In this document: positions 15,759-42,382 of the stretch, piece by piece
Layout: every line of letters starts with the position of its first letter
How positions within the stretch are numbered: the first letter of the stretch is position 1
Source of the DNA: a bacterium
GTDB lineage: Bacteria > Bacillota > Clostridia > Christensenellales > CAG-917
DNA: 44,084 nt
Direction of reading: 5' to 3'
Assembly: GCA_963620965.1 (NCBI GenBank)
Contig: CAVFCJ010000001.1
Span: 1-44,084 of the forward strand
Made by a program: the position numbers and the translations under genes
Notes under the pieces: model-generated
The model's input: only the letters and a program-made list of their open reading frames with translations
The model's database searches: none
Told to the model about the DNA's origin: nothing

Positions 15759-15784
15759 AAAAGCCCCGCTTTTGCGAGGCTTTC
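15759..15784 (-). terminator. Intrinsic terminator of the giant gene
   Basis: Minus strand reads aaaGCCUCGC-aaaa-GCGGGGCuuuugcuuug. Seven-bp GC-rich stem (15763-15769 / 15774-15780) with a U-rich tail, 28 nt after the stop at 15812. Confidence 0.8.
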
Positions 15785-15811
15785 GGTTTTTGTTTAATCA
15801 TACGCTTTCAA

Positions 15812-21800: not shown

Positions 21801-24800
21801 TCGACTTGAGTGCCGTCCTCGTTTGAAACCTTAACCGTCTTGTAAACGTCGTTGCCGTTGCTGTCCTTTTCAGTCACAAGACCTGCGATGTATGCAGGCA
21901 TCAGCAAGAACTTGTTGCCGTCCGTATTGACGTTTGCTTCTGCGCCAGCGGTGATTTCATCTGCCGTGGGTTGAACAAGAATCTGATAGGCACTGCCGTT
22001 GATTGTTTCAGACGGCGCACTGCTTATCGGGTCGATGATTGCATACGCCATGTTGCCTGCAGAATCCTTGAGGTAGGTTGCAAACGTCTGCTTACCGCCC
22101 GTTCTGAACGGAATTCTCACAAGGTCGGGCAATTCCGCCATATACTTGGAACTGTTGGTGTCGATGTCGATTCCCAGTGCCTTTTCGGTATACTTGCCGT
22201 TTATGTTGTAGTATCCCTTGATGGATTGCGTTTGTGCTTCCTTGTCGTTGGTGACGTAGACGGGGATTGCATAAAGCACCACGTTGAGTGCGTAGCCGTA
22301 TACATAACCTGCAAGTCGTCTGCCGTTTTCGTCTTCGGAAGTTGCCGCAGTCAAATCGACGGTTGCCGCATCCCAAACGATTTGCGAGCCGGGTGCGTCA
22401 TTGTAACTGCCTGAGTTGTCATAGGACACCATTTGTTTTCCGCTAAGGACAACGGGGAATTTGACGTTGGCATATTGCGGGAACACCGTTGCGTCCAAGA
22501 ACGCACTGTCGCGCAAGGTGATAGCCGTTGTCGAACCGTCAGCCTTCACCGCATTGCCCGATCTGGTTGCCGGATCGTCGATGACGATTTCGGATGGCGG
22601 TGTGACTTGGGTTGCGATTGGGTCTGCACTTTCCGCCTCGTCGAAATACAACAAACCGGTGTTGAATGTATTGTCAACCGTGCTGTACGGCGTGATGCGA
22701 ATCATAAAGAAGTCCCACGCCTCTCCCAAATTCGTTGTAGTGCCGGATGCACCACCGCCGTTTGCCATGGTGCTCATGGAACTCATTGTGGTGGTTTTTG
22801 CTTTGTTGTACTTCATCGATTCCGACGCGCCGATGCCGGTCTTCTCTGCATTGACCATAATTTCGATGGCTTGAATGCCGGGTTTTACGGTTTGACCGCT
22901 CGTGCAGCCGTATTCGCTTGCCGTCGGATTGAGGTCGATATAGAGATTGATGGACGGATCGATGTCGCCGGTTGCAAACGGAATGGGAAGAATGCCGCCG
23001 AGAAGGAAGTTCAAGTCTTCGATGACTTCGCTTGCAACATTCTTGATTGTGCCGAAACTAAGCGATACGCCTGCCGCGTCGAGTGCAAACAGCAATGCCC
23101 ACTTTGTCATAGACACAGGCAATGATCTAGCAATCGGTTCCAAATACTCAACTTTTTCATCCGTTGAAGCATTCCTGTCAACCATACCTTGAAGCGTATT
23201 GAAAATATTGGTGATTTCATTGGATTTTCCAACACCACTGATGAGGACATCGCCTATCTCGTGTTGTTCCCAAACCAAACCACTCGTTGTTTCGTAGCCA
23301 CGCGCCTGTTGAACGTCGCCGAAATACGCTTCATTATCTTTTTCAACCACATCTTTCATCAAGCCGAGAACCACAGTTATAACCTTGATGATAAGTTCAT
23401 TGTAAGCGTCCTTGTTGAGTTTGACCTTGACGGAAATCTTGCCTGCGCCGTTGGACACTGCGGTTGCACCGCTGAAATACGGCCAATATCCGTTGTCGTT
23501 GAACAAGTTGACCTCAATGCTCTTGATGAGATTTTCAAGGTTGAGAGGATATGTGTAGCCGGAATCTGCCGCTGCCGTAGCGGTGTCCGAAGCCGTCTTT
23601 GCAGTCGGATATTCATAGGTTGCGTCGTCGCCGTCAGTGCCTTTTACGAGCGCGAGAAGCGGCGAACTACCGAGCATACTGCCGAGGTCAAGACAGTTGA
23701 GTGCGGAAATCAACGGTGCGACCGTACCGACCAAGCCGCCCGAAGGAAGCGTGATGTTGGTGATAAAGATGTTGTTGCCACCCAATATTGCGGAAAGTCC
23801 GGTATCTGCCCTATTGCTCTCCAAATCAAGACGAATATTGTATTTTTGAGGTGAAGAATCCGGGATATTGGTTGACGTGAGAACCTTTTTGCCGCTGAGC
23901 GTTATGCTGGAATCCTGATACAACGTAGCAACACCTTTTGCCTGCGTCAACTGCCACACTTTGTTTTGGATGTTAATGGAAAGACCCGGCTTCAAACTGT
24001 CAATGACGTTTTGGACAAGGGACATCAAGCCCGACGTCTTCGAATAGGTCAAGCCGGTGTAGCCTGTCTTGACTTCTTCGATGAGGTTTTCATTGTCCAC
24101 CATGCTCTTGCCCAAGGCAATGTCAAAGTCGCTTATCTTGATGTTCGCGCCCGTGCCAACACTGTCGAGTTGCGCGTTGAGGTTGATTGAATCCAGTCCC
24201 TTTGCGCCGAGGTTCACGTCAAGTTTGACCGATTTGATGGGCGGAAGTTCGATGTCGCCAAGGTCGAGTCCGAGCATTCCGATAAGCGTTGTGATAAACG
24301 CATTGTCAAACGTCACACCGAGACGTCCGTTTTGGATGTCGACTTGCAAGTAAAGCGCATTGCTTGCCGCAGTGTCTGCGTCGGATGTCGTTGCGTCTGC
24401 GCTTACGCTTGCGCCGGATGCCGCCTTTGCGTCATAACTCGGAGTTGCACCGAGCAAACCTGCGATGCCTTGAAGTTTGATTTTGCCAAGGCCCAAGCCG
24501 CTGGCGTCAATGTAGAGTGCATCGGAATAGATTTCATTGGATGTATATGTGGCACTTGTTGCCACACTGAGTTCCCAGTTCGTGCCGTTCTTCTTCATAA
24601 GTCTGGACGAGCCGAGATAGTAGAGACTGATAAGATTGCTGCCTACGGGTTTGCCCAACGAGATGTCAACTGCGATGTCGCTGTACAAAATGCCGCCGAT
24701 GCCGTATGCGAGAATAGGCGCAAGGTTGACGTTTGCAGCGATGTCAATGGTGAGGTTGATCTCGTTTGCCATCGTGATGTTGACGTCGGCAAGAGTGTAC

Positions 24801-27800
24801 TTGTAGTAAGTCGTGCCGCTGACATACGTCTTTTCGGAGTGGAGGATGTAGTCGCCACTCGAATTTTTGGTGTAGACCTTGCCCGTATAGACCGACGAGC
24901 CGTCGTTGAGCGTGTTTGCGTCCACATATGTAAGTGCAGTAAACTTGCCCAAGAGTGCCGTGCCGCCAAGCAGATTTGCAAGCAAATCTTGCACCCAGCC
25001 TGCCAACGATTCATCGTAGCCGTTTTGTCCGGGTTTGAGATTCTTTGACGTCATAGTGAGGTTGAGCGACGCTTTGAGACCGATTGTAGGCAAATTGAGC
25101 GAGGATATGTCAAACGTACCCGTGCCATTGATGAGAGAGTCGAGGTCGAGAGAGAGAATTTCGATATAATCTCTCGGCACTTGTGCCGTGTGAGTGTGTC
25201 TGTAATACGTCTTGCTTTCGTCAACGGGGTTTTCGTCGAGGACATACTCGCCTGCTGCATTCTTGACATATTTTTCTTGCGACGGATTTGCTGCAAGTTC
25301 ATCTTGCGTGAGTTGCTTATAGAACTTCTTGTCTTCAGTGGAAAGTCCGAAGTGAGTCGCAATGCTCTCGCTTATGTCTTTTGTGATGCTTGCAGACGGA
25401 ATGTCGAGGCAGAAGTACAAGCCGTCGCTGAATCTAAGATTCAAGCTGATAGTAGTCTTGCCGCTTGTTGCGTCCATTCTGACAAGCAAGTCGCCGATGT
25501 CGGGGATCAAATCCTTTTGTTCGAGTCCGCGAATCGCCATAATCTTCTTGTAGATCGCGTTGACAAAGTCCGCATTGAGTTGCAGCAAGAGTTTTTGCGG
25601 CGTGACGTTGATCATAAAGTATGCGTAATCCTTCAAATGATCTTTGTTTTCTTCGATTGTGCCGATATCGTCTTTGCTTGCAATGCTTGCGCCGGACGCG
25701 TCGGTTGCGTCATCTTCGGCAAGGAACTTGCCGAGCACGCCTTCGAGCAAACCGTCAAGGTTGAGGTCGGTCACCGCAATCTTCGCCGTTTCGCCGAGTA
25801 TGCCGCTGAGGTCGACGTACACTGCGTTTTCAACAAGGTAAAGTCCAAGCAACGTCTTTTCGGTCGCCATGCTTGCCGTCTTCTTGTTGAGTTCGAGTCC
25901 GAGTTCCACTTTGTAAGTTTCAACATCGATGTTCGCAACAAGGTCGAGCGTGAGGAACGCGCCGCTGTTGTTGCCGAATTCGTTGGCGATGTTGAGTTTG
26001 AGTTGAGAGCCGCTGATTGCGCTGTTGGGGTTGATGAGCCCCATGATCAAGTCGAGGATTTCGCTCAAATCAATTATGTTGGCGTTGCCCGCATTGCCGC
26101 TGCTGTACATCGAAATTTCAATGGACATCTCGAGATGCGCCGTTGCGTTTTGCAACTTCACATAGTTGCCGTAGGACGCTTGTTTTGCGTAATGCACTTC
26201 TTCGATGTCCGCATCCGTTGCAAGACGATACGTTCCGCCCGCATCCTTGACGTATTCGCCGTCTTTGGATTCGACATAGACGTACTTGATGGAATTGTCT
26301 GCGTTTCTGTCGGCAAATTTCTCGTCTTTGTCGACGGAGAAGTCTTTGTTGACCGTCGCATAGAGTTTGCCAAGGGAAATTGCGATTGCGAAGTCGCCTT
26401 GTTTGAGATATGCGCCCTTCGTATCGCTTGCGGTGTGCTTTGTAAATGTATTTGTCGCCGCGACGTAGTCGTAGGTGTCGCCTGCCCATGCCGGATATGC
26501 GTACGCAACGAGTGCGTAATCGTCGGTGGATACGAGGACATATGTGTTGTCGTCATCTGCGCCATTGCCAACTGTGTATTCGCCGTCCGATTCCTTCTTG
26601 AACGTTGCGCCCGACCAGTCGCTTCCCTTGAAGTACTTGCCGCTTGCGCCGTACATCGCATTGTAGTTGTTGACCGTCTCATAGTAGAGCGTGCCGACCT
26701 TGAAGCCGAGGTTGATGTCGATACTGGGCGAGTTGCCGTAGAAGTTGATGGTGATACCGCTGGTGTCCTTCGTGTCGGTTGTGTAGAGTTTTGGCAAGAA
26801 CTCGCTGATGCCTTGAAGCACTGCGCTGTCGCTGTCCGCAAGCATACCGACGAGGTCTGCGATAAGAGTTTCGTTGAGTCCGACCGTGATAAAGTCGTTT
26901 GCGATGAGCAATCTGCCGAGAACGACGTTGAGAATGCTCCAGATGTTTGCAGGAATCAAACCGGTGTTGACTTCCTCCTCGTCGTCCGCCGCCGTCAACG
27001 CTTGCGCACTTGCGGTGGTTGCGATGCTGCCGAGTATGCTCGAAAGATCGAGACCGTCGACAACGCCGTAGGAGAAGAAGTCGCCCCAACCGACAATGTC
27101 GCCGATTTGGCTCGCGTCGATGTTGAGATAGAGTTTGCCGTCTTTCACTTCAACCCACAAGAGCGCCTTGGGCTTCTCGTTGCCGTGGAAGTTGGTTTCA
27201 TACGTCAACTCGAGATAAATCTTCGCACCTTCGAGAACTTGCAGGATGCCCACGCTGTTGTCGCCTGCGATCATCTTGACGAGGTTTGCCGTCTTCAAAT
27301 ACACTTTGAGATCGAGGTTCAAGCCGATGAGGCTTTGGAATTCCTTGCTGTTTTCAAGCGAGGTCGCGATGAAGTAGAAGTATTCGCCGATTTGCGGATC
27401 GTCAATGAACTGCGTGAATTGATACGTCCAGTTGATGACGTCGTCGAGCGTCATTCTGATGTCGAGGTTCAAGCCGAGTTCGACGCATTCGAGGTCGGCA
27501 AGTACGCTTGCAACGTCAAACGTGCCGCCGCCGAGCAAATCGCCGAGATTGAGCGCCAACGCTTTGGTGTAGTTGGTGAAATCGGTGACTTGTTTGTAGA
27601 CCTTGACGTTCGGATATTGCGCTGCGAAAGCATCCGCTTCGCTCATATCGGTGTATCCGTTTTCGTTGGGGTCGATCGGATAGTACTCTTGTCCGTTGTA
27701 CACAACCTTTTTGCCCGTTTCGTATGCGGATGCGCCGGTATAGTCGCTTGCAAGAGCGTATTGCAAATTGCCCTCGCCCGTGAAGCCTTGAAGGATGTCT

Positions 27801-33800: not shown

Positions 33801-36800
33801 TTGGTGATTTGGATTTGGAATTGAGAATCGCTGTATGCGAGCAACAACACCGCGTCGCGTTGGATCGAACGATTTTGCACGCTGTCGCTTGCCGTTTGCG
33901 CGCCGTTTTCTTCATTGTCACCGCCGATCGAGCCGAGTTTGTCAACGACTTTCTTTGCAAAGTCAATGAAGTTTTCAATCTTCGAGTAGTTTTCCGCAGT
34001 GGAAACAAGGCCCGTGAGGTCAAGATAGAGCGTGCCGCCACTCAAATACAAGCCGCCCAGCACCTTTTCGTTGCCGTTGCCGATTTCGTTTGCGGTGTCG
34101 TATTTTGCAAAGTAGCCCTTGTCGTCAACTTCGACAAATTCGATTGCGAGTTCCACTTTGCTCATATCGCTGTTGTTGATGAAGTCGCCAAACGAACCGC
34201 CCGACGCAAGTCCTTGCAAATCGAGTGCCGCAAGGTCGATGTTTGCCGAAACTCTCAAACCGATGCCTACGTTGAATGCGGACAACGTTTGCAAATTGAT
34301 AATCATATCGCGGAACGCATTGGGAAGCAAACCGCCTGCATTGACGACTTCCGCGCTTGAAGAATTGAAGTAAATCAAGCCGCTTACGCTCAGAGATACG
34401 TTTTGATCCTGATATGCGCTCTTTCCGCACTTGTTGTAGAGTTTGACTTCGCTTGCAAGAGCATTGCGAGTGACATCGTTGCCGTCTGCGTCCTTTTCGG
34501 TGACTGTCATCGGAATGTCGACTCTCGAATAGAACGTGTCTCTTGCGAGTGCGGAAGCGTCGTTCTTGTTGACATAGATGTCGTTTTCAACGTCATAGAC
34601 ATAGTTGCCGTTGGAGTCAACGTTGTATTTGACGGTGTATGCGTATTGCTTGCCGTCCTCGCCCGTCTTTACGGTTGCGTAGGAGCGAGAATACATTTGA
34701 ACGTCTGTGAGATCCTCTTTGGCATAACGCTTCGTGCCTTCGGGGAGGACTTCTCCGTCGTTTATGAGCCTATATTCGCCGTCCTCGCCAAGAATGTATG
34801 CACCGTTTGCGTCAACCGTGAAGTTGGGCTTGCGGTACATGCCCGTCTTGAGCAAGTATTCGCCGTTTGCGTCCGTGTCGAACGCATAGTATATTGCATT
34901 GTCGGTGAGATCCTTTTCTCTTTCGTAGTTTTCACCGCTGAATCCGCCGATCAATTTGACGATGTTTTCGATGTAGTCGTCAAGCGAAATGAATTCGAGT
35001 TTGTCGTCGTTGTCTAGAAGCGGTTGGTTTGTATCGACGCTGATAAGACCGACTTTTGCGTCAAGTCCGAGATTGAGGTCGATGAGATATTGAGAATCCG
35101 AAGAAAGGTTACCCTCGGAATCGATCGGGGCTTTCTTGTTTGCAAATGCGAGTTTGAGTTGCAAAGCGAGCGATTCGTTCATGCCGTACGCTTTGAACTT
35201 ATCCGTTTGCGGATATAGGAACAAACCGCTTTGAGATTCGTCCATAACCAAATTGTCGGAATCGACAACCGTTTCAAACAACATCGAGAACAAGTCGTTG
35301 AGGAAGTTTGAACGCACAAACACGCCCAAGTATTTTATTCTCTTGACGCCGTCGTCGCCTATCCACGGCTTGCCTGCAAGCACGATCTTCGACACGATCA
35401 TGTTGAGGATTGTGCCGACGCTCGAGTTGCCGTCTGTCATATCCGCCGCCGTGCTTGCGTCGCTGTTGCCGCCGAGTTCCACGCCGAGTTTTGCAAGCAA
35501 GTCGAGCAAATCGACCTGTATACGCGGACCGCCGATGCCTTCCAAATCGGCAAATACTACGCCGTCTTCGAGATAGACGCCGATTTTGGTGTTGCCTTCA
35601 GCTTCATAGTCGAAAGTGATGCCGATGTACGCTTCCAAGCCTTTGAGGATGGTTTCGATGTCAAGATTGAGATTGTTAAGGTCTATCTTCGACAAGTCTT
35701 CCATGCCTATCTTTTGGAGGTTGAGTCTTGCCTTGACGTCGAGTTTGAAACCGTCGTCCATCTTGTCGGAAAGCACGAGATTGAGTCCCAAACGTTTGAG
35801 CAAATCGCCGACGCTGAACTTGTTTTGTTGCACTTCGAATCCGATTTCCTCATTGTCTGTGTTGATGCGAATCTGCGGAAGCATGGTTGCAAGAATGTCT
35901 TGCAAACTGTCCATGTTGAGGAGAATGTCGAGCAATTGGTCTAATGCGAAACCTTCGCGGACGTATGTGCCGTTGTTGTCTTGCACAAATCTTTGCTCGT
36001 TTGTGCTGTACGAATATCTATCAAGCGGCGAAACTGCTTCGAGAGCGCGCTGGTCGGTGACGAGAGTGTACGTTGCGCTTGCATAGTAGTCGACGATCAA
36101 ACTGAGGTCGATTGCGATGATATGCGCATTGGTCATCGATGTGTAGTAACTTCTATACTCGCCGTCTTCCGCTTCAACGAACGCGCCGCCGACTTTCTTG
36201 TACTTCGTGCCGGTGTAATTTGCCTTTTCGTCTGTCGTCAAAAGGACAAACTTATCCTCGCCCCTTATACCCTTTTGCGCTTTTTCGCGAATGGTTGCGT
36301 ATGCGCTGCTCGTTGTGCCGGTTGCAATATCGATATTGTCAACGCTCACACCTAGTGCGAGGAGGTTGCTGTCGATATTAACGTCTATCGCAATTGACGG
36401 GTCAAGTTGCAAATCAACACCAACGGAAATGTCGAGGTCGAGTTTTTCAATGATTTCGGCAATGTCAAGGCTGCTGCCGCCTTCTTCGCTGTCGTTTTGC
36501 GTGAGAGCCGCAATAAGTCCCACAAGGACGTTTTGCATGACGAGTACGCCGAGTTTGCCGTCCGCAATGTTGAGGATGAGTTGCATTTGCTCGTCCGCAC
36601 TGTTGGAGAGCAATTCGTCCGCCGCCGTGGACGCGTCGCCGCCATTAATGATGGAATTGAGATCGCCGAGTGCGTCCGTGATGAACTTGCAGAGCACGTC
36701 GCAGAGGTTTGTTCCTTCGAGATAAATAGGCTCGCGACCGAGACTTCCGAAGTCGAAATAGATCTTCTCGCCTTCGACGAAAGCTGCTAATATATTCTTA

Positions 36801-39800
36801 TTTGTTATTTTATTTTTAATTTCAAGAACAATATTGCTATCGTTCGGCTCGTTGAGCGCGAGGTTTGCGCCGAGACTCACTCCGAGATTGTATTCGATGT
36901 CGTCAAACACATCCAGCCCGAGTTTGATGCCGAGTTCGGAAGCAAACAAATCGATGTATTTTTCAAGACGGATTTGCTCGTCTTGTCCTTTGAGTTGCAA
37001 ATCGAGTCCGAGATCGACGTTGAGAGAAAGCGTATTGAGATTTTCCGCCGTCGTATAGATGGTCGGGTCGAAATCCTCGGGCAATACGCCGTTTTCTTTG
37101 CCGAGCGCGAGTTTTACGGAACTGAGTTCCAAACCGACGTACGCGGGGTCGATTTGAAGATTGAGTACGAGTTTATAATCGTTCTTCCACGCAAACGCAA
37201 GATAACTTCTGTCCGAATTGAGTTTGATGAATTTTTCCGGGTCGACTTGCTTGCCTGCGAGCATTTGGACGAGGGTTGTCACAAGTCCTTCCGCAAAGTT
37301 GATTTGCAAACCTTCGGTGTCAACGCCGACATAACTTATGATGCCGCCAAGCACTTTGCCGAGAATACCCATAAGGTCGATTCCGCCGCCCTCATCTGCC
37401 GCTACGGCTGCCGTGCCGCCGGCGCTGCTCGAATCGTCGGTCATCAAACCGCCGATCAATGCGCCCAGATCGATGTTGGACAATGCAAGATGGAAGTCAT
37501 CGCTCAAATCGAGGTAGACCGTGCTTACCGATTGACCTTGCGCGTTTTCACCCGTGCTTTGCAAACGCAATGCGAGGATAACGTGTTCGAGTCTTTCGGC
37601 ATTAGACATCTTGTCCACAAGAGTCATCTTCTCGTTGTAGATTTCGATTGCAATGTCGCTGTGAGATACGATGTATGCTATGTCGAGCAAACTTGCCGCA
37701 GTGTAAATTTGTTCGTTTGCATATTGTTCTTGATTTTCGTCGGTGACGTTGATCTTGACATAGTTTCCGTCAACGAGGACGTAACCTTCGCCTCTGTAAT
37801 TGAGATCAGTCACTTCTGTGAGCGCAATGCCGCACGCAATATATTGTTTGAGATATACGTCACCCTCGAACGTATTGCGTTCGTCGTCGGTGAGAAGGAC
37901 GTATTTCGCACCGCTGAGTTTGTAGACTTCGACGTATTTTGCGAGGTCTGCAAGTTTTGAACTTTCATACTTCTTGAACACTACGTTTTGAGTGAGGTCA
38001 ACGGGAACGTCGGGATTGAGATGTGCGTTGAGAGCAATGCGGAATCCGATGTTTGCGCCCGCTTCGACAGGCACTTTGTAGGTGAGAAGAAGTTGTCTTA
38101 TGAACGAATTGAGTTCGGGATTGCTGTCATCGAGGAAGGAAGCAATCCATTCGCCGAGCGTCCAAGACTTGTTGCCTTGAAGCGCGCCGACCGTAAACGT
38201 GCCTTGAATTTCGGCGTAAATACTGGGAATGGTGATGTCGCCGTAGTCGTTGAACAATTCAACGTCTTCGAACACGTTGCCTTCGCTTTGAACGTAGGCA
38301 GTCATTTCTTGCATTTTTTGTCCGTCGCGGACAATCTTGATGGATTCGACCGCGTCACCGCCGATTTCGAGGTTGAGCGGAGCGAGCGTAATGCCGTCCT
38401 CCCCTTTTACGACCGTGCCGATATAGATTTCCGCGCCACCGATTTGTTGACCTGCGTCATTGTTGACGTCAAGCGCGATACGGATGGGTTTGTTGTCGAA
38501 TTTATCTTTTACGCTCGCCCAAGCGATTTGCGCCCAAGCGGTGATATCGCTTGCGTCGATTCCTATGAGTTGATAAAGGATATCGGTCAAACCTTTTGCG
38601 ATTTGCAATTTAACATTGTCGGAAGAAAGCGCCGCGATAATGTCGAGAGCAAGAGCCTTCCTTGCATCGGCAGCGCCTTGATCGACAAAGTCTTCCGCCG
38701 CCATTGCTTCCGCACCGACCGAGCCGTTGACTGTAACGGCCGAGTCTTTTGCAAGCAATGCGAGAATGACCTCATAGAGGTCAATGTCCGTTCTGACCTT
38801 ATCCAAACCGAAGTTGCTCGCGTCGATGTAGAGCGAACCGCCCGTGTAATAAAGTCCGAGCAAAACTTCGCGTTCGGCAGTCGCTTGACCGCTGATATCG
38901 CTTGACTTTTTGCCCGTAAGTTCGATCAACAGCTCGCTGACGTTACCATTCGTGTTGATTTGGGGTGCGCCGAGCAAGTATTCTACGATAGGCGAAAGGT
39001 CGAGTTGACCCGCAACGCGCAACTCGTAGTTGAGATCCATCGGCTCATCGAATGCGAGAGTCGCTTTGGTTATGTTTTCTTCTTGATATATGCCGTCGGA
39101 ATCTTTGTAATAAAGTTTGCCGCTATATCCGTCGGGAACAGGCGTTTCTTCGATTTCGACATACTTGCCGTTTGAATCAAGCCAATATTTACCCTCGCCA
39201 AACACGAGTTCTCTTGCGCCTTGATCTGCCGCGAAGTCAAGACCGAGCGTAAGGTCGAGTCCGATGAAGGGATATTCGAGAATCTCGGTGAAATCGTCGC
39301 CTTGACGATTGTCTTTGACAAGATAATCCGTCGCTTTGTCGTTCAAACCTGCGGACAAGCCGTTGAGCGACACGTTGAGGTTGACATTGTTGCCCAAAGA
39401 TACAAACACGCCAAGTTGAAGTTCGGTCAAATTGAGCCCGTCGTTGAGCGCGAGGCGGATTCCGCCGTCGAATTCGGTGCTTGCAAATTCAATCTTTACG
39501 CCGTCGATGTCGAGAAGTCCGAGGACTTGTTCGAAGAGGTTGGAAGCAAGCACTATTTCAAGAGCGTGATTGCCGAGTTTTAATCCGTCGACGATGCCCG
39601 CCACAAATCCGAGCACTTCATTGACGTTCATGCCGCCGTCTTCTTCGGTTTCATCTGCAACGAGAGCCTGATTGCTCGACGAATCGTTCGAATCCGAGCC
39701 GATCAAGTCGATGAGTTCTCTGACGTTGAGCTTGATTTGTTTTGCACTTATGCAGAGAATGTCCGCTTTGAGATACACCCAACCATCTTGCAAATAAAGC

Positions 39801-42289
39801 ACAAGCACTTCTTCGTTGTTGGATTGCTTGTGAATTGCGATCTTTGCAGACGATTTCAAAAGCAAATCGAGAATTTGGATGTTGTCCAAACCGCCGGTAA
39901 GGTCGAGGTCGGCGTTGATGTCGAGTCTAAGACCGCCGTCGATGTTTCCGAGTTCGATCAACGCTTTGATCAAAATACCCTTAAACAACGTGCCGATTTC
40001 CTGATCGGGCATGTTGACTTCGATCTTTGCAAGCTCGCCTTTGAGGGTTTCGAGGTCGAGAGTAAGTCCCGTGGACACATTGACGTGGAGCAAATCCGTG
40101 TTCAACGCACCGTTTTTGAGAATGGGCAAATACGCGTCCTCGTTTTGAGCAAGTTCGTTTTCGAGTTTGTCGAAAGACGCCTCGAAATCAACCAAATTGT
40201 TGATTTTACCAAAGGTAATGTCAACGCCCAACACAAGTCCGATGAGCGGATCGAGGCTGTATTCGGTGTTTTCTTCATTGTATTCTCTCACGCCGAGTTC
40301 CGCACTCAAAGTGAGCGTCTTGTTCTGCTGCGCGCCGTTGTTGACATACTTTAGTAATGCGCCGGTGATGGGAATGTCCGCACCTGCGTTATCGCCTGTG
40401 AACACAAGCGAGAAAATTGCGTCGAGAATATCCCTCGACAAATCTACGCTTATATCTCTGATGTTGAAGATGTTCCCGTCCATATTGAGATTGATATGGT
40501 CGAGAATCATGCTTACAAGAGTCAAAACATCAACCGATCCTTCGCCTTCCGCCGCAGAGTATGCGCCGTGTTGAATGACGATTTCGCCGTTGTCGACAAA
40601 CGTCTGTTGAATATTTTGAGCGGTCGCTCCGCCTTTAAGACCGTCGATTGCTCCCTTGACGGTGTCAAACACGGTGTTTACGAGGTCGCCCAGAAGTTCG
40701 TTTATGTTGATGTCGTCAATCTTGAACTTCGTTCCGTTGTAACCGAGCAGACCGCCCGCGTCGATATACACACCTTCTCTTGCGCCGGTGTAGTACGCCG
40801 TCAAGCGTTTTGCGCCGTCACGGCCGAGAATTTCCGCCGCAAGTCTTGTCTTTTTGGAATCTCTAGTGTTGATTTCCGCTTGAAGTTTGATTGTGAGAGG
40901 CACTTCTCCGCTGGCAAAATCGATTTCTTTTGCAAACAACGGTTTGAGTGCTTCGAGCATTTCGGGATCGAGATTATTGGTGAGAAGATTTGAAAGGAGA
41001 GTGCCGAAAGAGCCTATCACGTTGTCGATAGACACTTTCTTTTCGTTGAAGTTGAGAGTGAGAGAGATTTCGCCGTCGAGAGTGAGGAAAGAATATTTTT
41101 CCGCGCTTTCGTTCACGACGTCGTAAAGAGATTTTTCACCGTCTTGACGAGCGGTGTTGTTTTCGTTGCGATTTTTGAGAAGTCCGGGATTTTCGTCGCT
41201 GCCGACTAAATTGAGGTCGGGGGCACCTGCAAAGTCTGCTTTGGCATAGCCGAGTTTAATGCCGAATTCGGATTGGAACGTGCCGTACTTTTCTTCAACG
41301 CCTTCTACGCCATAGGAGTTGAGGTTTACGTCGATGTCGAACGTCGTGCCTTCGAGAGCGCCGTTCATGATGTCGGCTTCCATATAAAGAGCCACACCGG
41401 CGAGTGCGCCGAGTTTGCCCAAATCGAGACCGAGCACGTCTTTGACGAGTCCGATGATGTTTTCGGGAATAAGACCTTGAATGAGCGGAATTATGCTGAC
41501 GATAAGTCCGAGATCGCAAGGCATACGCAACACTTGATGTCCGTTGCCGTAGTCAACGCGCGTGCCCTTGCTTGCGCCGAACAATACGTTGACAAGCAAC
41601 TGTTCGACGGTCAAATGTGCCAAATCGATGTTGATAAGGCTGTTGATGAGTCCGCCGATGTCATAACCCATCAAAGTGTCATACAACATAGAGGAAAGAT
41701 CGAGTTGTTCGAGAGCGTCCGCAAATTTCGACACGAATTTTGTCATGTCGATCGTGTCGGTATAAACGACGTGGACGCCGTCACCCTTCTTGATTCCGCG
41801 CATATCCGCAACAAGTTTACCTTCGTAATAATACGCGCCGAAAAGCAGAGTCCCTTCACCGTTTTTTGCCATCGTGCAAATGGTGTCTTGGTCGATGGTT
41901 CTGCCGTTTATTTCGGCTGTCAACTTGCGGAATTCAACAAGTATTTCGCTGTTGGAATCCTCGACAGTGTCGATGTCGCCTGCAAAGCGAGCAACGATAA
42001 GCGAATCGGACGAATCCTTGGAAAAGCCCATCACGAACGCCGTGTCGACTCTTATGTAGCGCTTATCTTTTTCTTCGTCCGCTTTTTGCAATGCTGCGGC
42101 TTTGAATGCGTTCCAAAAATCCTGCGCTCCGATGTACTCGGCATTGTCGATGTCCGGATTGGGCGTCGGCGTAGGAATGACAGGAGTGTCGACGTTCCCG
42201 TCAGCTTTCGGATTGCACGCTACGAGACCGAACAGCATTACGCTGACCAGCACGAGCAACAATACGAGTGATAACTTTCTCATTCTCAT
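15812..42289 (-). CDS. Giant surface lipoprotein, about 8,825 aa (26.5 kb), modular, family unknown
   Basis: Uninterrupted ORF 15812..42616. The probable start is ATG 42289 (MRMRKLSLVLLLVLVSVMLFGLVAC), with GGAGGA 4 nt upstream. It has a lipobox signal peptide, repeated modules and Ig-like C-terminal repeats, and is bounded by its own promoter and terminator. Confidence 0.9.
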   Translation of the reverse strand: MRMRKLSLVLLLVLVSVMLFGLVACNPKADGNVDTPVIPTPTPNPDIDNAEYIGAQDFWNAFKAAALQKADEEKDKRYIRVDTAFVMGFSKDSSDSLIVARFAGDIDTVEDSNSEILVEFRKLTAEINGRTIDQDTICTMAKNGEGTLLFGAYYYEGKLVADMRGIKKGDGVHVVYTDTIDMTKFVSKFADALEQLDLSSMLYDTLMGYDIGGLINSLINIDLAHLTVEQLLVNVLFGASKGTRVDYGNGHQVLRMPCDLGLIVSIIPLIQGLIPENIIGLVKDVLGLDLGKLGALAGVALYMEADIMNGALEGTTFDIDVNLNSYGVEGVEEKYGTFQSEFGIKLGYAKADFAGAPDLNLVGSDENPGLLKNRNENNTARQDGEKSLYDVVNESAEKYSFLTLDGEISLTLNFNEKKVSIDNVIGSFGTLLSNLLTNNLDPEMLEALKPLFAKEIDFASGEVPLTIKLQAEINTRDSKKTRLAAEILGRDGAKRLTAYYTGAREGVYIDAGGLLGYNGTKFKIDDININELLGDLVNTVFDTVKGAIDGLKGGATAQNIQQTFVDNGEIVIQHGAYSAAEGEGSVDVLTLVSMILDHINLNMDGNIFNIRDISVDLSRDILDAIFSLVFTGDNAGADIPITGALLKYVNNGAQQNKTLTLSAELGVREYNEENTEYSLDPLIGLVLGVDITFGKINNLVDFEASFDKLENELAQNEDAYLPILKNGALNTDLLHVNVSTGLTLDLETLKGELAKIEVNMPDQEIGTLFKGILIKALIELGNIDGGLRLDINADLDLTGGLDNIQILDLLLKSSAKIAIHKQSNNEEVLVLYLQDGWVYLKADILCISAKQIKLNVRELIDLIGSDSNDSSSNQALVADETEEDGGMNVNEVLGFVAGIVDGLKLGNHALEIVLASNLFEQVLGLLDIDGVKIEFASTEFDGGIRLALNDGLNLTELQLGVFVSLGNNVNLNVSLNGLSAGLNDKATDYLVKDNRQGDDFTEILEYPFIGLDLTLGLDFAADQGARELVFGEGKYWLDSNGKYVEIEETPVPDGYSGKLYYKDSDGIYQEENITKATLAFDEPMDLNYELRVAGQLDLSPIVEYLLGAPQINTNGNVSELLIELTGKKSSDISGQATAEREVLLGLYYTGGSLYIDASNFGLDKVRTDIDLYEVILALLAKDSAVTVNGSVGAEAMAAEDFVDQGAADARKALALDIIAALSSDNVKLQIAKGLTDILYQLIGIDASDITAWAQIAWASVKDKFDNKPIRIALDVNNDAGQQIGGAEIYIGTVVKGEDGITLAPLNLEIGGDAVESIKIVRDGQKMQEMTAYVQSEGNVFEDVELFNDYGDITIPSIYAEIQGTFTVGALQGNKSWTLGEWIASFLDDSNPELNSFIRQLLLTYKVPVEAGANIGFRIALNAHLNPDVPVDLTQNVVFKKYESSKLADLAKYVEVYKLSGAKYVLLTDDERNTFEGDVYLKQYIACGIALTEVTDLNYRGEGYVLVDGNYVKINVTDENQEQYANEQIYTAASLLDIAYIVSHSDIAIEIYNEKMTLVDKMSNAERLEHVILALRLQSTGENAQGQSVSTVYLDLSDDFHLALSNIDLGALIGGLMTDDSSSAGGTAAVAADEGGGIDLMGILGKVLGGIISYVGVDTEGLQINFAEGLVTTLVQMLAGKQVDPEKFIKLNSDRSYLAFAWKNDYKLVLNLQIDPAYVGLELSSVKLALGKENGVLPEDFDPTIYTTAENLNTLSLNVDLGLDLQLKGQDEQIRLEKYIDLFASELGIKLGLDVFDDIEYNLGVSLGANLALNEPNDSNIVLEIKNKITNKNILAAFVEGEKIYFDFGSLGREPIYLEGTNLCDVLCKFITDALGDLNSIINGGDASTAADELLSNSADEQMQLILNIADGKLGVLVMQNVLVGLIAALTQNDSEEGGSSLDIAEIIEKLDLDISVGVDLQLDPSIAIDVNIDSNLLALGVSVDNIDIATGTTSSAYATIREKAQKGIRGEDKFVLLTTDEKANYTGTKYKKVGGAFVEAEDGEYRSYYTSMTNAHIIAIDLSLIVDYYASATYTLVTDQRALEAVSPLDRYSYSTNEQRFVQDNNGTYVREGFALDQLLDILLNMDSLQDILATMLPQIRINTDNEEIGFEVQQNKFSVGDLLKRLGLNLVLSDKMDDGFKLDVKARLNLQKIGMEDLSKIDLNNLNLDIETILKGLEAYIGITFDYEAEGNTKIGVYLEDGVVFADLEGIGGPRIQVDLLDLLAKLGVELGGNSDASTAADMTDGNSSVGTILNMIVSKIVLAGKPWIGDDGVKRIKYLGVFVRSNFLNDLFSMLFETVVDSDNLVMDESQSGLFLYPQTDKFKAYGMNESLALQLKLAFANKKAPIDSEGNLSSDSQYLIDLNLGLDAKVGLISVDTNQPLLDNDDKLEFISLDDYIENIVKLIGGFSGENYEREKDLTDNAIYYAFDTDANGEYLLKTGMYRKPNFTVDANGAYILGEDGEYRLINDGEVLPEGTKRYAKEDLTDVQMYSRSYATVKTGEDGKQYAYTVKYNVDSNGNYVYDVENDIYVNKNDASALARDTFYSRVDIPMTVTEKDADGNDVTRNALASEVKLYNKCGKSAYQDQNVSLSVSGLIYFNSSSAEVVNAGGLLPNAFRDMIINLQTLSAFNVGIGLRVSANIDLAALDLQGLASGGSFGDFINNSDMSKVELAIEFVEVDDKGYFAKYDTANEIGNGNEKVLGGLYLSGGTLYLDLTGLVSTAENYSKIENFIDFAKKVVDKLGSIGGDNEENGAQTASDSVQNRSIQRDAVLLLAYSDSQFQIQITKALLSFVLATFLPDLGSLEEVFDVFNISLGVDLGQPVYKSVDDLKATDLDLYNKFQNEYKGDRYKKYTTEDYSNTPATDTYYVAGNAYYLASTTYVYEVTVDGDNVTPVDGEKHRFEDGNGETGKTYAILENGKYVVISGKVQGKYIHSNANYYAKVENIDKPVSLRSYRMYRRTDGVESVTDTYIAGNTYIRFGGEERQIEQLRTRLFGYVKDENGEYYRTIDLYDQISDYYLGLDIAIGCVNMGLKLGGIEIGFGAGDELLPAYIRDGKAHSYFNDGKEIEYTDETKNSYAFEDVPTNMFYDTIITVGFSVELELGITEGTLDLGKILSSIIGDLTGVVIEMPSTAKGYSSAHFRLDVSLMVDIYDLTKSELKIELINETETGYESLWLGAYYINNTIYVNLEEAFNIQKFAIGGLNIAEILKDYIIDFDSDDEYFVAGGAQASSTSEALVASGAQTSTVDLSDRDLALSMLINRDLLTLKLGDKLFDTILEYIPEDLLGFDIKELFYNELNGGLQVELNTSDSLNLSVDVALGLDGDRYNKDSDYAGTDAEKASLASKVNSAQYYVFRQDANGNYIKSDNGNYVRAITSKEANSVGASDRYAKYKVAFDEGVNTPYLLKVVDNEKGDGSQKLDTTKYPMLEDGKTSVVIYKYDAGAVANNAYVSDGGKYDMTLELGLAIKNLNVAFTNSRTYVLSGDELAEYTNMDDVDRFTLSETIDITTQFKSGNDNDIDLSAVLQAFFPSLTDEQLLVIKAQADDGGDVNRSLQLVLDVDIQVAALLNFMRTELVKYTADGDQFDGDMDLFAVIDLLKQVIEQFKNNTDQLVSLIADIASYVNLSVRLQTKGGNDTEYHDMLGIYMVGGTFELLSPDEKTNVTGENYVDPSERYDHYFETKNGSYYLDETTGEYKYITSDTFAGTRYSYDSSYCYKNENGNYKRVNGGLFVDLSYFNIPSLRVDANEIRKLVSSVLASTSADAQAAADEEESTFPLVKDDSILGYIRTFAYGLQITSRYIKVIANTDYINSILSLVMGENAIQFDEAKFVNQPNVTLYTDNTRYAYDTAENVVTKFIEAYDTSATNDEKKAARREIEKVLGKSKYLYDITEYKGTGASKQGVYYKAEDGSYAQKSEMATVERKAYDAKVEAGTASYYDIKRVDTYIKLQGSDTYILYADATQSQINNSEKVADLLDRGSKVPLLYEKFTTTEGGTVKTEYKQARGSLSVVIPLKSRNEFLSVNLYLWNHKLSVAINAPSVSVTEFQYITRQEAIDDAASADPQYSIKSIAAGARYVNTDEDIYTSVDKEADGLSNWKFDYYDGTGKFDVQKYSDAENYAGPRYYEYRGELIAITKDSLFVKNGTKYIPAAAVDENANPIVTDWALFPDFIAEIENNDKEYYVENTAKTAYVRLQRTFVYKKNTYNSQKKVLLSATDACESENYYIKVQQASSIQQPDFNKPEYADYAYKEYVDSDNLYYISLALRGSLFLQAGKIYFDYATYKGVYNSVVNKITDESLYQEVPDSVLAKIAYKKFQGDYVKVTDTTEIATLKANNGLYVLLNGELDEKYSGVNEALGDVLGSLLGAMTGKIQITEDMTFNVYFSLRLNLGFKLYILPSFGIDVRDLDVAIDVWGEQNDLMENGNYVTSEDRDANNYSGKLLDGTKPHILGIYYDNDKDTGKAGLYVDAEALLGKDAKLFVDMSEYSLEDVITGLVAGIGEDASATDASVASDSVTALNPDKQSADTTSLFVNIFTNALALNVTSGFAKVLIRELLPDNASIADMLPNLKVYLKQNLNPYDITIGAILFNEEGDIPVLNLGLNIQGLNGVEGESSSIEFGRKEDILAMQQGSNAIFYYANFYRDNGNTDYDNYYGKNYNAKDYVKLFHDPTTGYDYIENADGELYTGKDADGKTVAGPEDRYMKAAPVMSEVLASRQLAYEGDIYTDVEGVYVLVYKRLNDIAGNNNLDEDTYREYRNLVKSEQFATFTGTLYTVDNNGNFVKTDKDILQGFTGEGNLQYALASDYTGASAYETGKKVVYNGQEYYPIDPNENGYTDMSEADAFAAQYPNVKVYKQVTDFTNYTKALALNLGDLLGGGTFDVASVLADLECVELGLNLDIRMTLDDVINWTYQFTQFIDDPQIGEYFYFIATSLENSKEFQSLIGLNLDLKVYLKTANLVKMIAGDNSVGILQVLEGAKIYLELTYETNFHGNEKPKALLWVEVKDGKLYLNIDASQIGDIVGWGDFFSYGVVDGLDLSSILGSIATTASAQALTAADDEEEVNTGLIPANIWSILNVVLGRLLIANDFITVGLNETLIADLVGMLADSDSAVLQGISEFLPKLYTTDTKDTSGITINFYGNSPSIDINLGFKVGTLYYETVNNYNAMYGASGKYFKGSDWSGATFKKESDGEYTVGNGADDDNTYVLVSTDDYALVAYAYPAWAGDTYDYVAATNTFTKHTASDTKGAYLKQGDFAIAISLGKLYATVNKDFSVDKDEKFADRNADNSIKYVYVESKDGEYVKDAGGTYRLATDADIEEVHYAKQASYGNYVKLQNATAHLEMSIEISMYSSGNAGNANIIDLSEILDLIMGLINPNSAISGSQLKLNIANEFGNNSGAFLTLDLVANIDVETYKVELGLELNKKTASMATEKTLLGLYLVENAVYVDLSGILGETAKIAVTDLNLDGLLEGVLGKFLAEDDATDASGASIASKDDIGTIEENKDHLKDYAYFMINVTPQKLLLQLNADFVNAIYKKIMAIRGLEQKDLIPDIGDLLVRMDATSGKTTISLNLRFSDGLYFCLDIPSASITKDISESIATHFGLSTEDKKFYKQLTQDELAANPSQEKYVKNAAGEYVLDENPVDESKTYYRHTHTAQVPRDYIEILSLDLDSLINGTGTFDISSLNLPTIGLKASLNLTMTSKNLKPGQNGYDESLAGWVQDLLANLLGGTALLGKFTALTYVDANTLNDGSSVYTGKVYTKNSSGDYILHSEKTYVSGTTYYKYTLADVNITMANEINLTIDIAANVNLAPILAYGIGGILYSDIAVDISLGKPVGSNLISLYYLGSSRLMKKNGTNWELSVATSATYTSNEIYSDALYIDASGLGLGKIKLQGIAGLLGATPSYDAKAASGASVSADATTSDADTAASNALYLQVDIQNGRLGVTFDNAFITTLIGMLGLDLGDIELPPIKSVKLDVNLGAKGLDSINLNAQLDSVGTGANIKISDFDIALGKSMVDNENLIEEVKTGYTGLTYSKTSGLMSLVQNVIDSLKPGLSINIQNKVWQLTQAKGVATLYQDSSITLSGKKVLTSTNIPDSSPQKYNIRLDLESNRADTGLSAILGGNNIFITNITLPSGGLVGTVAPLISALNCLDLGSMLGSSPLLALVKGTDGDDATYEYPTAKTASDTATAAADSGYTYPLNLENLIKSIEVNLFNDNGYWPYFSGATAVSNGAGKISVKVKLNKDAYNELIIKVITVVLGLMKDVVEKDNEAYFGDVQQARGYETTSGLVWEQHEIGDVLISGVGKSNEITNIFNTLQGMVDRNASTDEKVEYLEPIARSLPVSMTKWALLFALDAAGVSLSFGTIKNVASEVIEDLNFLLGGILPIPFATGDIDPSINLYIDLNPTASEYGCTSGQTVKPGIQAIEIMVNAEKTGIGASESMKYNKAKTTTMSSMSTMANGGGASGTTTNLGEAWDFFMIRITPYSTVDNTFNTGLLYFDEAESADPIATQVTPPSEIVIDDPATRSGNAVKADGSTTAITLRDSAFLDATVFPQYANVKFPVVLSGKQMVSYDNSGSYNDAPGSQIVWDAATVDLTAATSEDENGRRLAGYVYGYALNVVLYAIPVYVTNDKEAQTQSIKGYYNINGKYTEKALGIDIDTNSSKYMAELPDLVRIPFRTGGKQTFATYLKDSAGNMAYAIIDPISSAPSETINGSAYQILVQPTADEITAGAEANVNTDGNKFLLMPAYIAGLVTEKDSNGNDVYKTVKVSNEDGTQVEYYVLSRSKLPTGKAFPAGTIDWNTDDFKYDWQGSTDWSSGATSTVQVGFTYQWGLGKAVEDTISLTAKNYKISRLTSMSTDASGTTSQTLKSERDSDGNYTTVLEIKAMDIDADMQNLVTYLSGFKYVSGKFTSESSMSGFDVEWDTAELEKALQAITTKDSNGNAVVNFYKGLDVTIKAKVGGDRFSIFTSVTKTSTSTDKTGFVGKSESFAGKFAQEVDVRIVIKPYVFDSMAKSLVFDQYQYENITADSFGTAYQINVKDAQGNTSVENLTVGNGLFVEAPFIKVGETYHNAYSNGVHDLKSDEITYEGYSNQRTYPLYAKLVIGTEYSGKQEVYVPIEVNEIKPSAVSLTVEHDNTLNPTWYESEAYEKFNVSVGMNTYTMFPDWTTVQYYTNAACTKLKSQQNIFDGGTIYAQVEAYATADGTKNGTKLALVNTGKTDENGEPIYSAQKITLRLNVEQQTIQSVNFFYDETIGDVAAYVRKYANDEAKLAELKAKLADISNYTGSVYQQTHVSDGTAFGIDPINFATNPSDYFKTSDWGDAIGGTPVKINLVKGDSYIAYVRAFDTVVSSKGIDGTDKVQTVYMTIGNDKVQFNVNIPSYEFTDGTMSDTTLAFVDGKVAGTDGDMLQFNYNVFNEWKLPSKATVQTAQGVGEITIDVKWVDYAAPNKDELKSDEDGKLYVEREYFFFDGLSMRYPSAGAFTAKIYLEGFNTNVTIEPNGMSRNYDVFDKFEFARTATVKVGDTTYYNVPIHWESTAMPTADEINQGSFTRKMYVLGVYVEGQDIYSDYTVTINNDFTIDKLTGGYKADNFAINVAKDNFYQGLPKSANVKVGTKTIPVTLAWSDDYTAQSGFDGNMALTITSKDGDEVVLESVVNVAVKVESAGITGLAAGQKYVLDPYAKSGTLFESGSLQEVNVSGSDNTQYAIVEYELDDQAFYDNIASSFGKKFKVAVTYKYNAGKNANVETGEIEVYVVNRNIMFMSDYANRSIVVDTFLNKDASYLDNWMRITTMGGDTFDAYFDWSDVDKLIKSGKSNSAYMATAIVGIEKANGGYVLEDITDDNKVNPTYVAIEDYIEYKQKTDANFALTDETRYMLAKQRVNIPVTVLDRTIVDAELLLDDTGLRYLYSDTSKYSTITDTLIDNTDGDGRYIDIVYNKTTGMPEQYVYYNHFAYVGADKLPDTMQLTFANGDVGEYHITYENAPSASDLAGLTSTLERKMIVHVWNSEAKEIEVTDAFEMTIKIRVSKVTLTNSDLAYNDMSVGSYKYNKDVYADRENTVYDTSKYAQTATFYVGAQFMLAQTWWTEGRSENAGKFTYNSTYTKRHGFTDTDGEVYPGIYSVYSANNEFKAEGQEGNYTGVKFYTYNADTKNYILYTGEVTYASADTTYKSESGQDLYILVYVTTQTLNASWDASSVNYTYRGGNVAVEATLTSNASGNSATSKVDVTIHVNNSKATGDATLVEGDTCGLLSGGKFVIDPYADGNVFERKTGYSGDRYEPSTTDEGTYVKNNLDGTYKLVNGQYVLLSEDELNRDYANFPTRLTVTLANGTKVDVPVTWDFSGVNVTYAGGEYYAYAIVNYDGKYNYTATDSTSANEVGTQRIKFTVNVIDRSVKAGKDGIANETELKKLAGYAYGVNSGVAAYINPYEYIKPTMPTSISLNERQADGTYTAQTYSTTSDTRKLAWSFDEFRPSYNGGVIYVTAKLIGVDGNVQTYKIPFLVQKMEATNITEAQTTVTGGVTKLTAKSGGYSSSISSGVADSAFSVDPNDPNRLTMPFTYIGKFNVYNPTYNAIDGTVTYPETASTTTEIEFFYAIVSMPADEQYTVTSSGITTSASGSNATVQLGDQERISVNIDQTNSTLQPTKLAVSSLYSGTTLNMTTTVSGASVNIVWFGTVEVYLVSDKVNAAATYAVMFSSSGANVTLPTYADRKVVYKLYAAIGTVVDGNGTVVTTQPATKDFADSHTAVEEGQTIPEYQVLSDMATITING
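15815..22669 (-). other. C-terminal zone of the giant protein: array of Ig-like (Big_4-like) beta-sandwich repeats
   Basis: Recurrent LPxxVxVxxxxGxxxxVxVxW-type motifs: LPSKATVQTAQGVGEITIDVKW, FARTATVKVGDTTYYNVPIHW, LPKSANVKVGTKTIPVTLAW, FPTRLTVTLANGTKVDVPVTW, LPDTMQLTFANGDVGEYHITY. Domain boundaries were not determined. Confidence 0.55.
23558..41869 (-). repeat. Zone of at least 14 long degenerate protein modules (about 250-750 aa each) in the giant protein
   Basis: The anchor motif hhG(L/A)Y(Y/L)xxGx(L/V)Y(I/V/L)D recurs, with first codons near nt 41848, 40804, 39808, 38866, 37528, 36793, 35587, 34063, 32638, 31234, 28816, 27166, 25852 and 24634. Most are followed by an acidic Ala/Ser/Thr linker and an amphipathic hydrophobic segment. 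Confidence 0.7.
42215..42289 (-). other. Lipoprotein (SPase II) signal peptide of the giant protein
   Basis: MRMRK n-region, LSLVLLLVLVSVMLFG h-region and lipobox L-V-A-C, followed by a Pro/Thr-rich spacer NPKADGNVDTPVIPTPTPNPDID. Confidence 0.8.
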
Positions 42290-42353
42290 AATCTCCTCCG
42301 AAACATACGCTTCTACGCGTGTAGCGCATATGTGTAGATTATTATACAAGTTA

Positions 42354-42382
42354 ATTATACATTTTTCTCGCGTGTTTGTCAA
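42354..42382 (-). promoter_or_regulatory. Consensus sigma-A promoter of the giant gene
   Basis: Minus strand reads TTGACA (42382-42377)-N17-TATAAT (42359-42354), an exact match to both consensus hexamers at optimal spacing. Predicts a 5' UTR of about 55-60 nt. Confidence 0.75.

Follow-up and report, generated by a model that had tools for sequence, protein, structure and literature searches.

The 44,084-nucleotide stretch analysed here (the window; positions 1 to 44,084 of contig CAVFCJ010000001.1 in assembly GCA_963620965.1, from a Christensenellales bacterium placed in CAG-917) encodes on its minus strand a giant protein built from at least 14 long, highly diverged tandem modules, which resembled no described domain in the collections searched. 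The modules define a family of giant proteins in which their order and number are conserved, and the protein itself appears to be a lipoprotein precursor. We favour, at a probability of roughly 0.5, the reading that it is a lipid-tethered, acidic surface fibre or envelope scaffold of ~1 MDa, with a constant 14-module array and a variable immunoglobulin (Ig)-like tail. It would be a giant bacterial surface protein whose novelty lies in an undescribed module and an unusual fixed-number architecture.

Fourteen diverged modules in one giant protein

The whole repeat region lies inside a single open reading frame (ORF; 15812..42616, minus strand, 8,934 codons), from whose first codon residues are numbered here, the real start being M110. 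The initial annotation had proposed the modules from the letters of the sequence; all of the anchor strings that it quoted were located (aa 258, 605, 937, 1251, 2852, 3328, 4602, 5151 and 5589), as were the helices ending in L(V/I)GML (e.g. aa 1027, 1777, 5253 and 6106). Comparison of the entire protein with itself by BLAST came back empty because off-diagonal high-scoring segment pairs are culled within the self match, and fragments were therefore compared with one another. BLASTP of 400-aa fragments produced off-diagonal matches that were weak (top score 34.7 bits) and in register, numbering 449 versus 117-169 in block-shuffled controls, where top scores reached 23-29 bits. A profile hidden Markov model (HMM) built from five units detected nine units outside the seed (e.g. 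aa 521-734 at 4e-6 and aa 5936-6174 at 5.5e-8), and iteration settled on 14 units spanning aa 187-6151. Every one of the 14 was recovered when left out of the profile, with E-values of 1e-5 to 1e-25, and neither the reversed protein nor three block-shuffled controls gave an HMM match better than 4e-4. The internal repeats are thus statistically supported by a unit HMM with controls.

The module period ranges from 254 to ~830 aa, in agreement with the 245-750 aa of the initial annotation. The span first assigned to the array (23558-41869) captured the correct region and needs minor correction at its boundaries: unit 1 begins slightly upstream of it, at 42058 (aa 187). At the other end unit 14 stops at 24164 (aa 6151), and a degenerate 15th unit possibly follows, reaching 23417 (aa ~6400); this candidate comprises a weak HMM match (E = 0.03) and the linker motif described below, the remainder having been read by eye. 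Paralogous units share just 12-23% identity, and tandem and direct repeat finders gave nothing meaningful at the DNA level; the repeats are therefore ancient.

Pfam-A searches at E <= 1 returned no domain within aa 1-6,300, and single-unit searches of all 14 modules at E <= 10 gave no recurrent match. An NCBIfam scan of the giant protein was empty, and no match was found in PDB sequence profile searches using a one-unit alignment, a three-unit alignment or the C-terminal tail. By these searches the module belongs to no existing family, as had been anticipated, and nearly the whole 8,800-residue protein goes unrecognised by Pfam, NCBIfam and the PDB.

An exhaustive search of 1.84 billion cluster representatives with the 14-unit profile revealed a family of unnamed giant proteins. 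At E <= 1e-3 there were 148 matched proteins (29 at E <= 1e-30), many of them 5,000-7,900 aa long with 10-16 matched stretches. Word-index protein search scarcely reaches this family, a 1,270-aa query recovering three partial relatives and a three-unit alignment six. Relatives P0005 and P0007-P0012 align collinearly with the window protein over aa 112 to ~8,900 at ~28% identity, and many independent contigs encode collinear orthologs, 7,300-7,900 aa in length. Among 19 relatives of more than 5,000 aa, 18 have a lipoprotein signal peptide with the motif ..L[VAIT][AG]C in their first ~30 residues; the fragment P0004 and P0053, which have no lipobox and no signal peptide at their start, look 5'-truncated. 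When scanned with a sharpened HMM, the relatives bearing a lipobox, many of which span 5,600-7,900 aa, contain 12-15 modules (mode 14), together with a module-less tail of 940-3,670 aa.

For all 14 window modules, the best-scoring module in P0005, P0007 and P0011 is the one with the same ordinal number, and it scores 1.2-5 times (mostly 2-4 times) as high as the runner-up. This positional one-to-one orthology indicates that the array is ancient, fixed in number and conserved module by module, and that it is neither expanding nor being homogenised. Against close relatives, the ratio of nonsynonymous to synonymous substitution rates (dN/dS) is 0.13-0.25 along the giant gene and 0.07 for the neighbouring SPFH gene. 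Judged by these substitution rates, the giant gene is under purifying selection yet fast-evolving, as is typical for exposed proteins. Its evolution is unusual in that module number and position are fixed, with inserts and tail free to vary. The new domain family is defined by 587 module instances, an HMM consensus and two diagnostic motifs.

Pfam searches of six other family members gave a single sub-threshold Flg_new match only. Flg_new (Listeria-Bacteroides repeat) is a domain typical of Firmicute surface proteins. In P0041, a distant relative of 3,338 aa with five modules, such a match lies just below threshold at aa 40-102, directly after the lipobox, indicating that the module occurs in smaller surface lipoproteins too.

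The first 109 codons of the ORF (42290-42616, minus strand) are noncoding and hold the promoter and the ribosome-binding site; the true start is M110, since a consensus promoter and the Shine-Dalgarno sequence GGAGGAG (5 nt 5' of the M110 ATG at 42289) lie upstream of it and all ortholog alignments begin at aa 110-112. The residues that follow conform to the lipobox rule [LVI][ASTVI][GAS]C after n- and h-regions, and the signal peptide is the sole strongly hydrophobic segment of the 8,825-aa precursor. The protein is accordingly a predicted lipoprotein precursor, which would be lipidated and cleaved by signal peptidase II. The mature form would have 8,801 aa, ~962 kDa and a pI of 4.4, with 1,254 Asp and Glu versus 698 Lys and Arg residues.

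Module anatomy and predicted fold

The module consensus, drawn from the 587 instances of the sharpened HMM, comprises 216 columns and bears out the architecture originally described, in which amphipathic β-strands lead to an hhGLYYxGGxLYID hairpin, after which come an acidic linker and then an amphipathic helix. It opens with alternating Leu/Asp-Asn strands, the strand 'SELALELY', a loop, the anchor hairpin 'VLLGIYYvGGtLYIDLsG' and the strand 'KIKI'. Amphipathic helix 1, 'INLADLLADLLGGLL', comes next and is followed by an acidic linker rich in Ser, Ala and Gly. Beyond the linker lie the hairpin 'LLLGLLI-sdgg-LSVNL', hydrophobic helix 2 'DLINALLGLL' and further alternating strands running into the next module. 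Both helices have conserved hydrophobic positions (columns 109-121 and 171-179).

The most conserved columns fall in the anchor (Y83 in 75% of the 587 modules, Y90 in 84%, D92 in 71%), and Ala132 is next (72%). This alanine sits in a linker motif, E-A-x-[T/A]-A-[A/S]-D, which unexpectedly is the second most conserved feature of the module. The pattern matches 12 of the 15 window units (e.g. TAAVAAD at aa 1735, DASTAAD at aa 1994 and 2386, DAQAAAD at aa 3916 and QALTAAD at aa 5205), and close variants can be picked out by eye in modules 4 and 14. It could be a site of cleavage, modification or docking. Small Cys-rich inserts (..C....D.DG.CD.CG..) stand directly after the motif in P0010 (aa ~1422), P0017 (aa ~1493 and 2467) and P0034 (aa ~578 and 1257), suggesting that the linker tolerates insertion and is probably exposed.

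Structure was predicted with AlphaFold2 in two runs, one of a single unit with its 14 paralogs as the multiple sequence alignment (mean predicted local distance difference test score, pLDDT, 54) and one of three consecutive units (aa 1570-2470) with 24 orthologous segments (pLDDT 61.7). In both models DSSP assigned strands of 7-14 residues linked by tight turns, plus helices. The β-cores of the three-unit model had a pLDDT of 70-88, and the linkers, at 30-40, were predicted to be disordered. Mean-field direct coupling analysis (DCA) of 484 module sequences gave its strongest couplings between columns 66 and 81 (z = 8.9) and at 64-81, 63-84, 66-83, 84-89, 92-101, 90-103, 156-165 and 157-164. 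All of these form antiparallel ladders, with constant i+j. Weaker couplings connect the hairpin and helix after the linker with the anchor hairpin; because they cross between the two halves of the module, they hint that the linker is an excursion loop inside one folded domain. Model and couplings together argue that the module is an antiparallel β-meander with two helices and a disordered acidic linker.

The initial annotation had also offered two guesses at the fold, and neither was supported. A β-solenoid or β-helix would be expected to show parallel coils of ~18-25 residues with constant i-j, whereas the predicted strands and the constant-i+j couplings speak for an antiparallel meander and against a parallel solenoid. 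Membership of the AsmA/TamB group was not supported, three results being negative. The Pfam models AsmA, AsmA_2, TamB (DUF490), DUF748 and DUF3971 did not match the whole protein at E <= 1 or the units at E <= 10, hhalign of the one-unit profile with Escherichia coli TamB gave a probability of 0.2%, and Foldseek retrieved nothing from the PDB at E < 0.05. In the Foldseek searches of the PDB the three-unit model (pLDDT 61.7) had its best E-value at 0.05, with CD1/MHC platforms at template-modelling (TM) scores <= 0.2; the single-unit model (pLDDT 54) reached 0.5 at best, with hotdog-fold thioesterases recurring at TM ~0.3. Against BFVD, the three-module model gave nothing significant. With models of moderate confidence, a groove that is merely analogous could still be formed. 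Hotdog-fold and MHC/CD1-like platforms, the best non-significant neighbours, have an antiparallel sheet that cradles helices, which fits the predicted topology; at E-values of 0.05-3 and TM of at most 0.3, however, the likeness describes shape and is not evidence of homology.

Lineage-specific inserts between the modules, in which Tyr, Asp, Gly and Asn abound, make the window protein ~1,000 aa longer than its orthologs. They contain the β-hairpin-like motifs D-x-N-G-x-Y (37 sites) and Y-[VF]-L-L-[TS]-x-[DE]-E...Y. A recurring Tyr motif is found at aa 1572, 2123, 3805, 5359 and 8468, the last of these in the C-terminal tail, and the gene's weak DNA repeats, which comprise families D1 and D4 alone, stem from such Tyr-rich motifs.

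Within the tail, an HMM built from the window itself delimits five Big_4-like domains of ~85 aa each (aa 7573-8562; 16931-19900, minus strand). They share with Big_4 (PF07532) the signature P..A.V......V.V.W...G.Y, but one copy only nears the Pfam threshold (21.3 bits versus a cutoff of 22.1, E = 2e-4), and these domains, which are separate from the module array, account for less than half of the tail. No matches were obtained for the remaining tail sequence. The C-terminus (...SDMATITING) has no LPXTG motif and no hydrophobic tail.

Candidate roles at the cell surface

In the reading that we favour, the precursor would be exported by the Sec pathway, lipidated on the lipobox cysteine and tethered at the outer face of the cytoplasmic membrane. 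The 14 modules, in fixed order, would each form an antiparallel β-meander around the invariant Y..GG.LY.D hairpin, with two amphipathic helices probably packed against the hydrophobic side of the sheet, plus a single E-A-x-T-A-A-D loop that is acidic and disordered. Jointly they would build a long stalk or scaffold that is strongly acidic, has a defined length and bears lineage-specific Tyr-rich hairpin inserts. The distal tail, fast-evolving and variable in size, with its Ig-like (Big_4-like) domains, is presumably the part in contact with wall, matrix, other cells or host glycans. We infer a surface location from the lipobox, the absence of further hydrophobic segments, the acidity and the evolutionary rate. 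The role as stalk or scaffold is speculative, as is ligand binding by the tail. The combination of export signal and tandem-domain stalk that characterises fibrillar adhesins is present, in the form of the signal peptide, the 14 modules and the Ig-like tail. Domains of surface type also speak for this reading, namely the Big_4-like copies of the tail and the sub-threshold Flg_new repeat of P0041.

Giant Firmicute surface proteins such as Staphylococcus aureus Ebh, the serine-rich repeat (SRR) proteins and Apilactobacillus kunkeei Giant1-5 (PMC12863079) provide the closest company for this reading. Like the window protein, itself presumably extracellular, they are thousands of residues long, extracellular, acidic and modular, occupy ~1-6% of a small genome, evolve more rapidly than the genes around them and contain Ig-like or β-rich domains. 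Giant1-5, built of known β-solenoid and SRR-type domains, are the nearest described analogues in lifestyle (PMC12863079). These proteins differ, however, in being composed of known domains (FIVAR/GA, β-solenoid binding regions, SRR), often as near-identical repeats of variable number, and they usually have LPXTG or other C-terminal anchors. The window protein would instead be held by an N-terminal lipid, and its repeats are ancient, kept at ~14 and made from a module with no known homolog.

Several observations weigh against the fibre or scaffold reading. No adhesive or wall-anchor domain (LPXTG, SLH, CWB or LysM) passed threshold in Pfam or NCBIfam. The repeat number of adhesin stalks usually varies, whereas here a fixed count is combined with positional orthology, which is unusual. 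The conserved linker motif has no explanation if the stalk is passive. Confidence in the structural models was only moderate (mean pLDDT 54 and 62), and every source labels the family members no further than 'hypothetical protein'. The literature, including those surveys of giant bacterial proteins that could be searched, does not describe the family.

A rival reading is that the array is a bridge-like hydrophobic conduit, an independent or unrecognisably diverged analogue of the repeating β-groove (RBG) proteins (AsmA/TamB/YhdP and VPS13/BLTP) that is membrane-anchored at its N-terminus and would carry lipids or other hydrophobic cargo along a continuous antiparallel groove to an outer envelope layer or a partner cell. 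We consider this unlikely. Its appeal lies in the design. RBG/AsmA-like proteins (TamB, YhdP and AsmA; VPS13, ATG2 and BLTP1) are likewise very long and membrane-anchored at the N-terminus, and consist of a fixed number of extremely diverged repeats, in each of which a series of long amphipathic strands, paired antiparallel, precedes a helix and a disordered loop; the repeats are conserved by position, as seen in the bridge-like lipid transfer proteins (BLTPs). Christensenella minuta, moreover, is listed as an atypical, Gram-negative-staining member of the Bacillota with a reported 'Gram-negative cell wall structure' and no genes for lipopolysaccharide (LPS) or outer membrane proteins (PMC11448272), so that the envelope of the clade is incompletely understood. 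Set against this, the Pfam, hhalign and Foldseek searches described above detected no similarity in sequence or structure. The conserved hydrophobic faces of two helices per module and the weak couplings between the post-linker segment and the anchor suggest that the sheet is covered and the domains are closed. The module is also larger (core ~220 aa, period 250-830 aa), the membrane anchor is a lipobox in place of a transmembrane helix, the protein ends distally in a soluble Ig-like tail and not in a membrane-docking element, and no second membrane is known in the clade. An elaborated form of the idea strikes us as similarly doubtful. In it the array would be an independently evolved, envelope-spanning β-sheet ruler or conduit of fixed length, BLTP/AsmA-like in function and lipid-tethered in Gram-negative-staining, LPS-less Clostridia, with E-A-x-T-A-A-D loops that, as sites of processing, modification or docking, would organise an outer layer of protein.

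The linker motif suggests a further alternative, to which we give even less credence, that the protein is a polyprotein precursor cut at the motif into ~15 pieces that assemble into an S-layer-like outer protein layer. The conservation of the motif, in 12 of 15 units with variants in modules 4 and 14, and its position in a region predicted to be disordered (pLDDT 30-40) would suit a processing site, and a small-x-small pattern followed by an acidic residue resembles sites of the protease or signal-peptidase type. However, no dedicated protease adjoins the gene, where synteny is generally conserved and the neighbours are SPFH and Zn-ribbon genes and housekeeping genes. Couplings across the linker suggest a single folded domain, so that cleavage would leave the parts joined, and some orthologs accept Cys-rich inserts right behind the motif. 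No precedent was found.

That the gene is a chance or assembly ORF or a decaying pseudogene, its modules a product of compositional bias, is effectively refuted: the listed ORF does over-extend by 109 codons at its 5' end, and one relative (L060) has six frame changes along the gene, but collinear orthologs of 7,300-7,900 aa lie on many independent contigs, dN/dS is 0.13-0.25 over the whole length even in the L060 comparison, reversed and shuffled controls are negative and module orthology is positional. In L060 (Logan ERR4565262, 1364-18563) the collinear gene is 77-90% identical and is called as at least six ORFs through the frame changes; frameshifts introduced in assembly are a likelier cause than decay of the gene, since dN/dS remains 0.13-0.25.

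If the genome measures ~1.65 Mb, like the related Christensenella-type MAG chromosome CP091723, the gene would occupy ~1.6% of it; it is thus costly yet kept under purifying selection in a clade of gut Clostridia related to Christensenellaceae. The family offers an entry point to the poorly understood envelope of Gram-negative-staining, LPS-less Firmicutes, and to cell-cell and host contact by heritable gut taxa.

Gene features, neighbourhood and distribution

Table 1. Features of the giant gene in the window, in order from its promoter to its terminator-like hairpin; aa numbers count from the first codon of the 8,934-codon ORF.
Feature	Position	Strand	Residues and remarks
Promoter-like site	42354..42382	-	TTGACA-17-TATAAT, 12/12 matches; within the over-extended ORF, upstream of M110
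Giant gene (predicted lipoprotein)	15812..42289	-	M110 to stop, 8,825 codons; ortholog alignments begin at aa 110-112
Predicted lipoprotein signal peptide	42215..42289	-	MRMRKLSLVLLLVLVSVMLFGLVA followed by C (Cys134), lipobox LVAC; read from the sequence
Module 1	41627..42058	-	aa 187-330; partial profile match
Module 2	40289..41086	-	aa 511-776; anchor LTAYYTGAREGVYIDA
Module 3	39398..39994	-	aa 875-1073
Module 4	38405..39052	-	aa 1189-1404
Module 5	37148..37864	-	aa 1585-1823
Module 6	36371..37030	-	aa 1863-2082
Module 7	35219..35773	-	aa 2282-2466
Module 8	33662..34288	-	aa 2777-2985
Module 9	32201..32872	-	aa 3249-3472
Module 10	30608..31648	-	aa 3657-4003; ~80-aa Tyr-rich insert splits the anchor hairpin
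Module 11	28394..29146	-	aa 4491-4741
Module 12	26696..27367	-	aa 5084-5307
Module 13	25427..26140	-	aa 5493-5730
Module 14	24164..24772	-	aa 5949-6151
Possible degenerate 15th module	23417..23809	-	aa ~6270-6400; AILGGNNIFITNITL, TATAAADSG and LNLENLIKSIEVNLF in order
Module-less C-terminal tail	15815..23416	-	aa 6401-8934; β-rich, Thr/Tyr-rich
Terminator-like hairpin, then UUUUGCUUUG	15745..15800	-	-21.9 kcal/mol, z -4.5; ~15 nt past the stop

The giant gene looks monocistronic, as it lies between a consensus promoter and a terminator-like hairpin and the next gene has a promoter-like site of its own (Table 1). A consensus terminator scan made no call at the hairpin and U-tract. Just downstream lie genes for an SPFH/Band-7 protein with C-terminal double Zn ribbons and for a second Zn-ribbon protein (13423-15760, minus strand); the listed SPFH ORF probably begins ~33 codons early, and its promoter-like site is at 15702..15675. 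An acyltransferase gene stands upstream of the giant gene in divergent orientation. The other neighbours in the window, metG, tatD, ksgA, trmO and a P-type ATPase gene, are housekeeping genes whose arrangement is Firmicute-like.

The order giant gene, SPFH gene, Zn-ribbon gene, (gate, orf) and metG is conserved in relatives, and SPFH and Zn-ribbon genes are always 3' of the giant gene (loci L004, L010, L019, L025, L028, L031, L050, L054 and L055). The SPFH proteins of relatives are 62-95% identical, versus 24-82% for the giant. A functional link between the giant and the SPFH and Zn-ribbon proteins was considered and not adopted, since synteny runs the whole way to metG and each gene has its own promoter-like site.

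No run of 7-10 conserved columns was present in an alignment of the C-terminal region. A degenerate DNA probe, designed on one motif that is conserved there, matched 58 loci among GTDB species representatives, of which tblastn confirmed 11; the remaining 47 are chance matches in other genomes, many of them high-GC actinobacteria. The 11 real loci belong to metagenome-assembled genomes (MAGs) of uncultured Clostridia/Clostridiales, including UMGS1043 and HGM11451 and two labelled 'Christensenella sp.', one of which is a 1.65-Mb chromosome (CP091723). The names UMGS1043 and HGM11451 suggest human-gut MAG catalogues, and the family so far appears only in uncultured gut-associated Clostridia of Christensenellales type.

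Two further bins, L004 ('Phascolarctobacterium succinatutens') and L025 ('Anaeroplasmataceae bacterium'), have giants that are 82% identical and neighbours that are 94-95% identical under mutually inconsistent labels, and are likely mis-binned or mislabelled. The window metG is 84.5% identical to that of the 'Christensenella sp.' MAG L054. Two window ORFs have no Pfam match, one of 455 aa (2026-3393, plus strand) and one of 153 aa (11681-12142, minus strand), and the latter is conserved beside metG in L004, L054 and L019.

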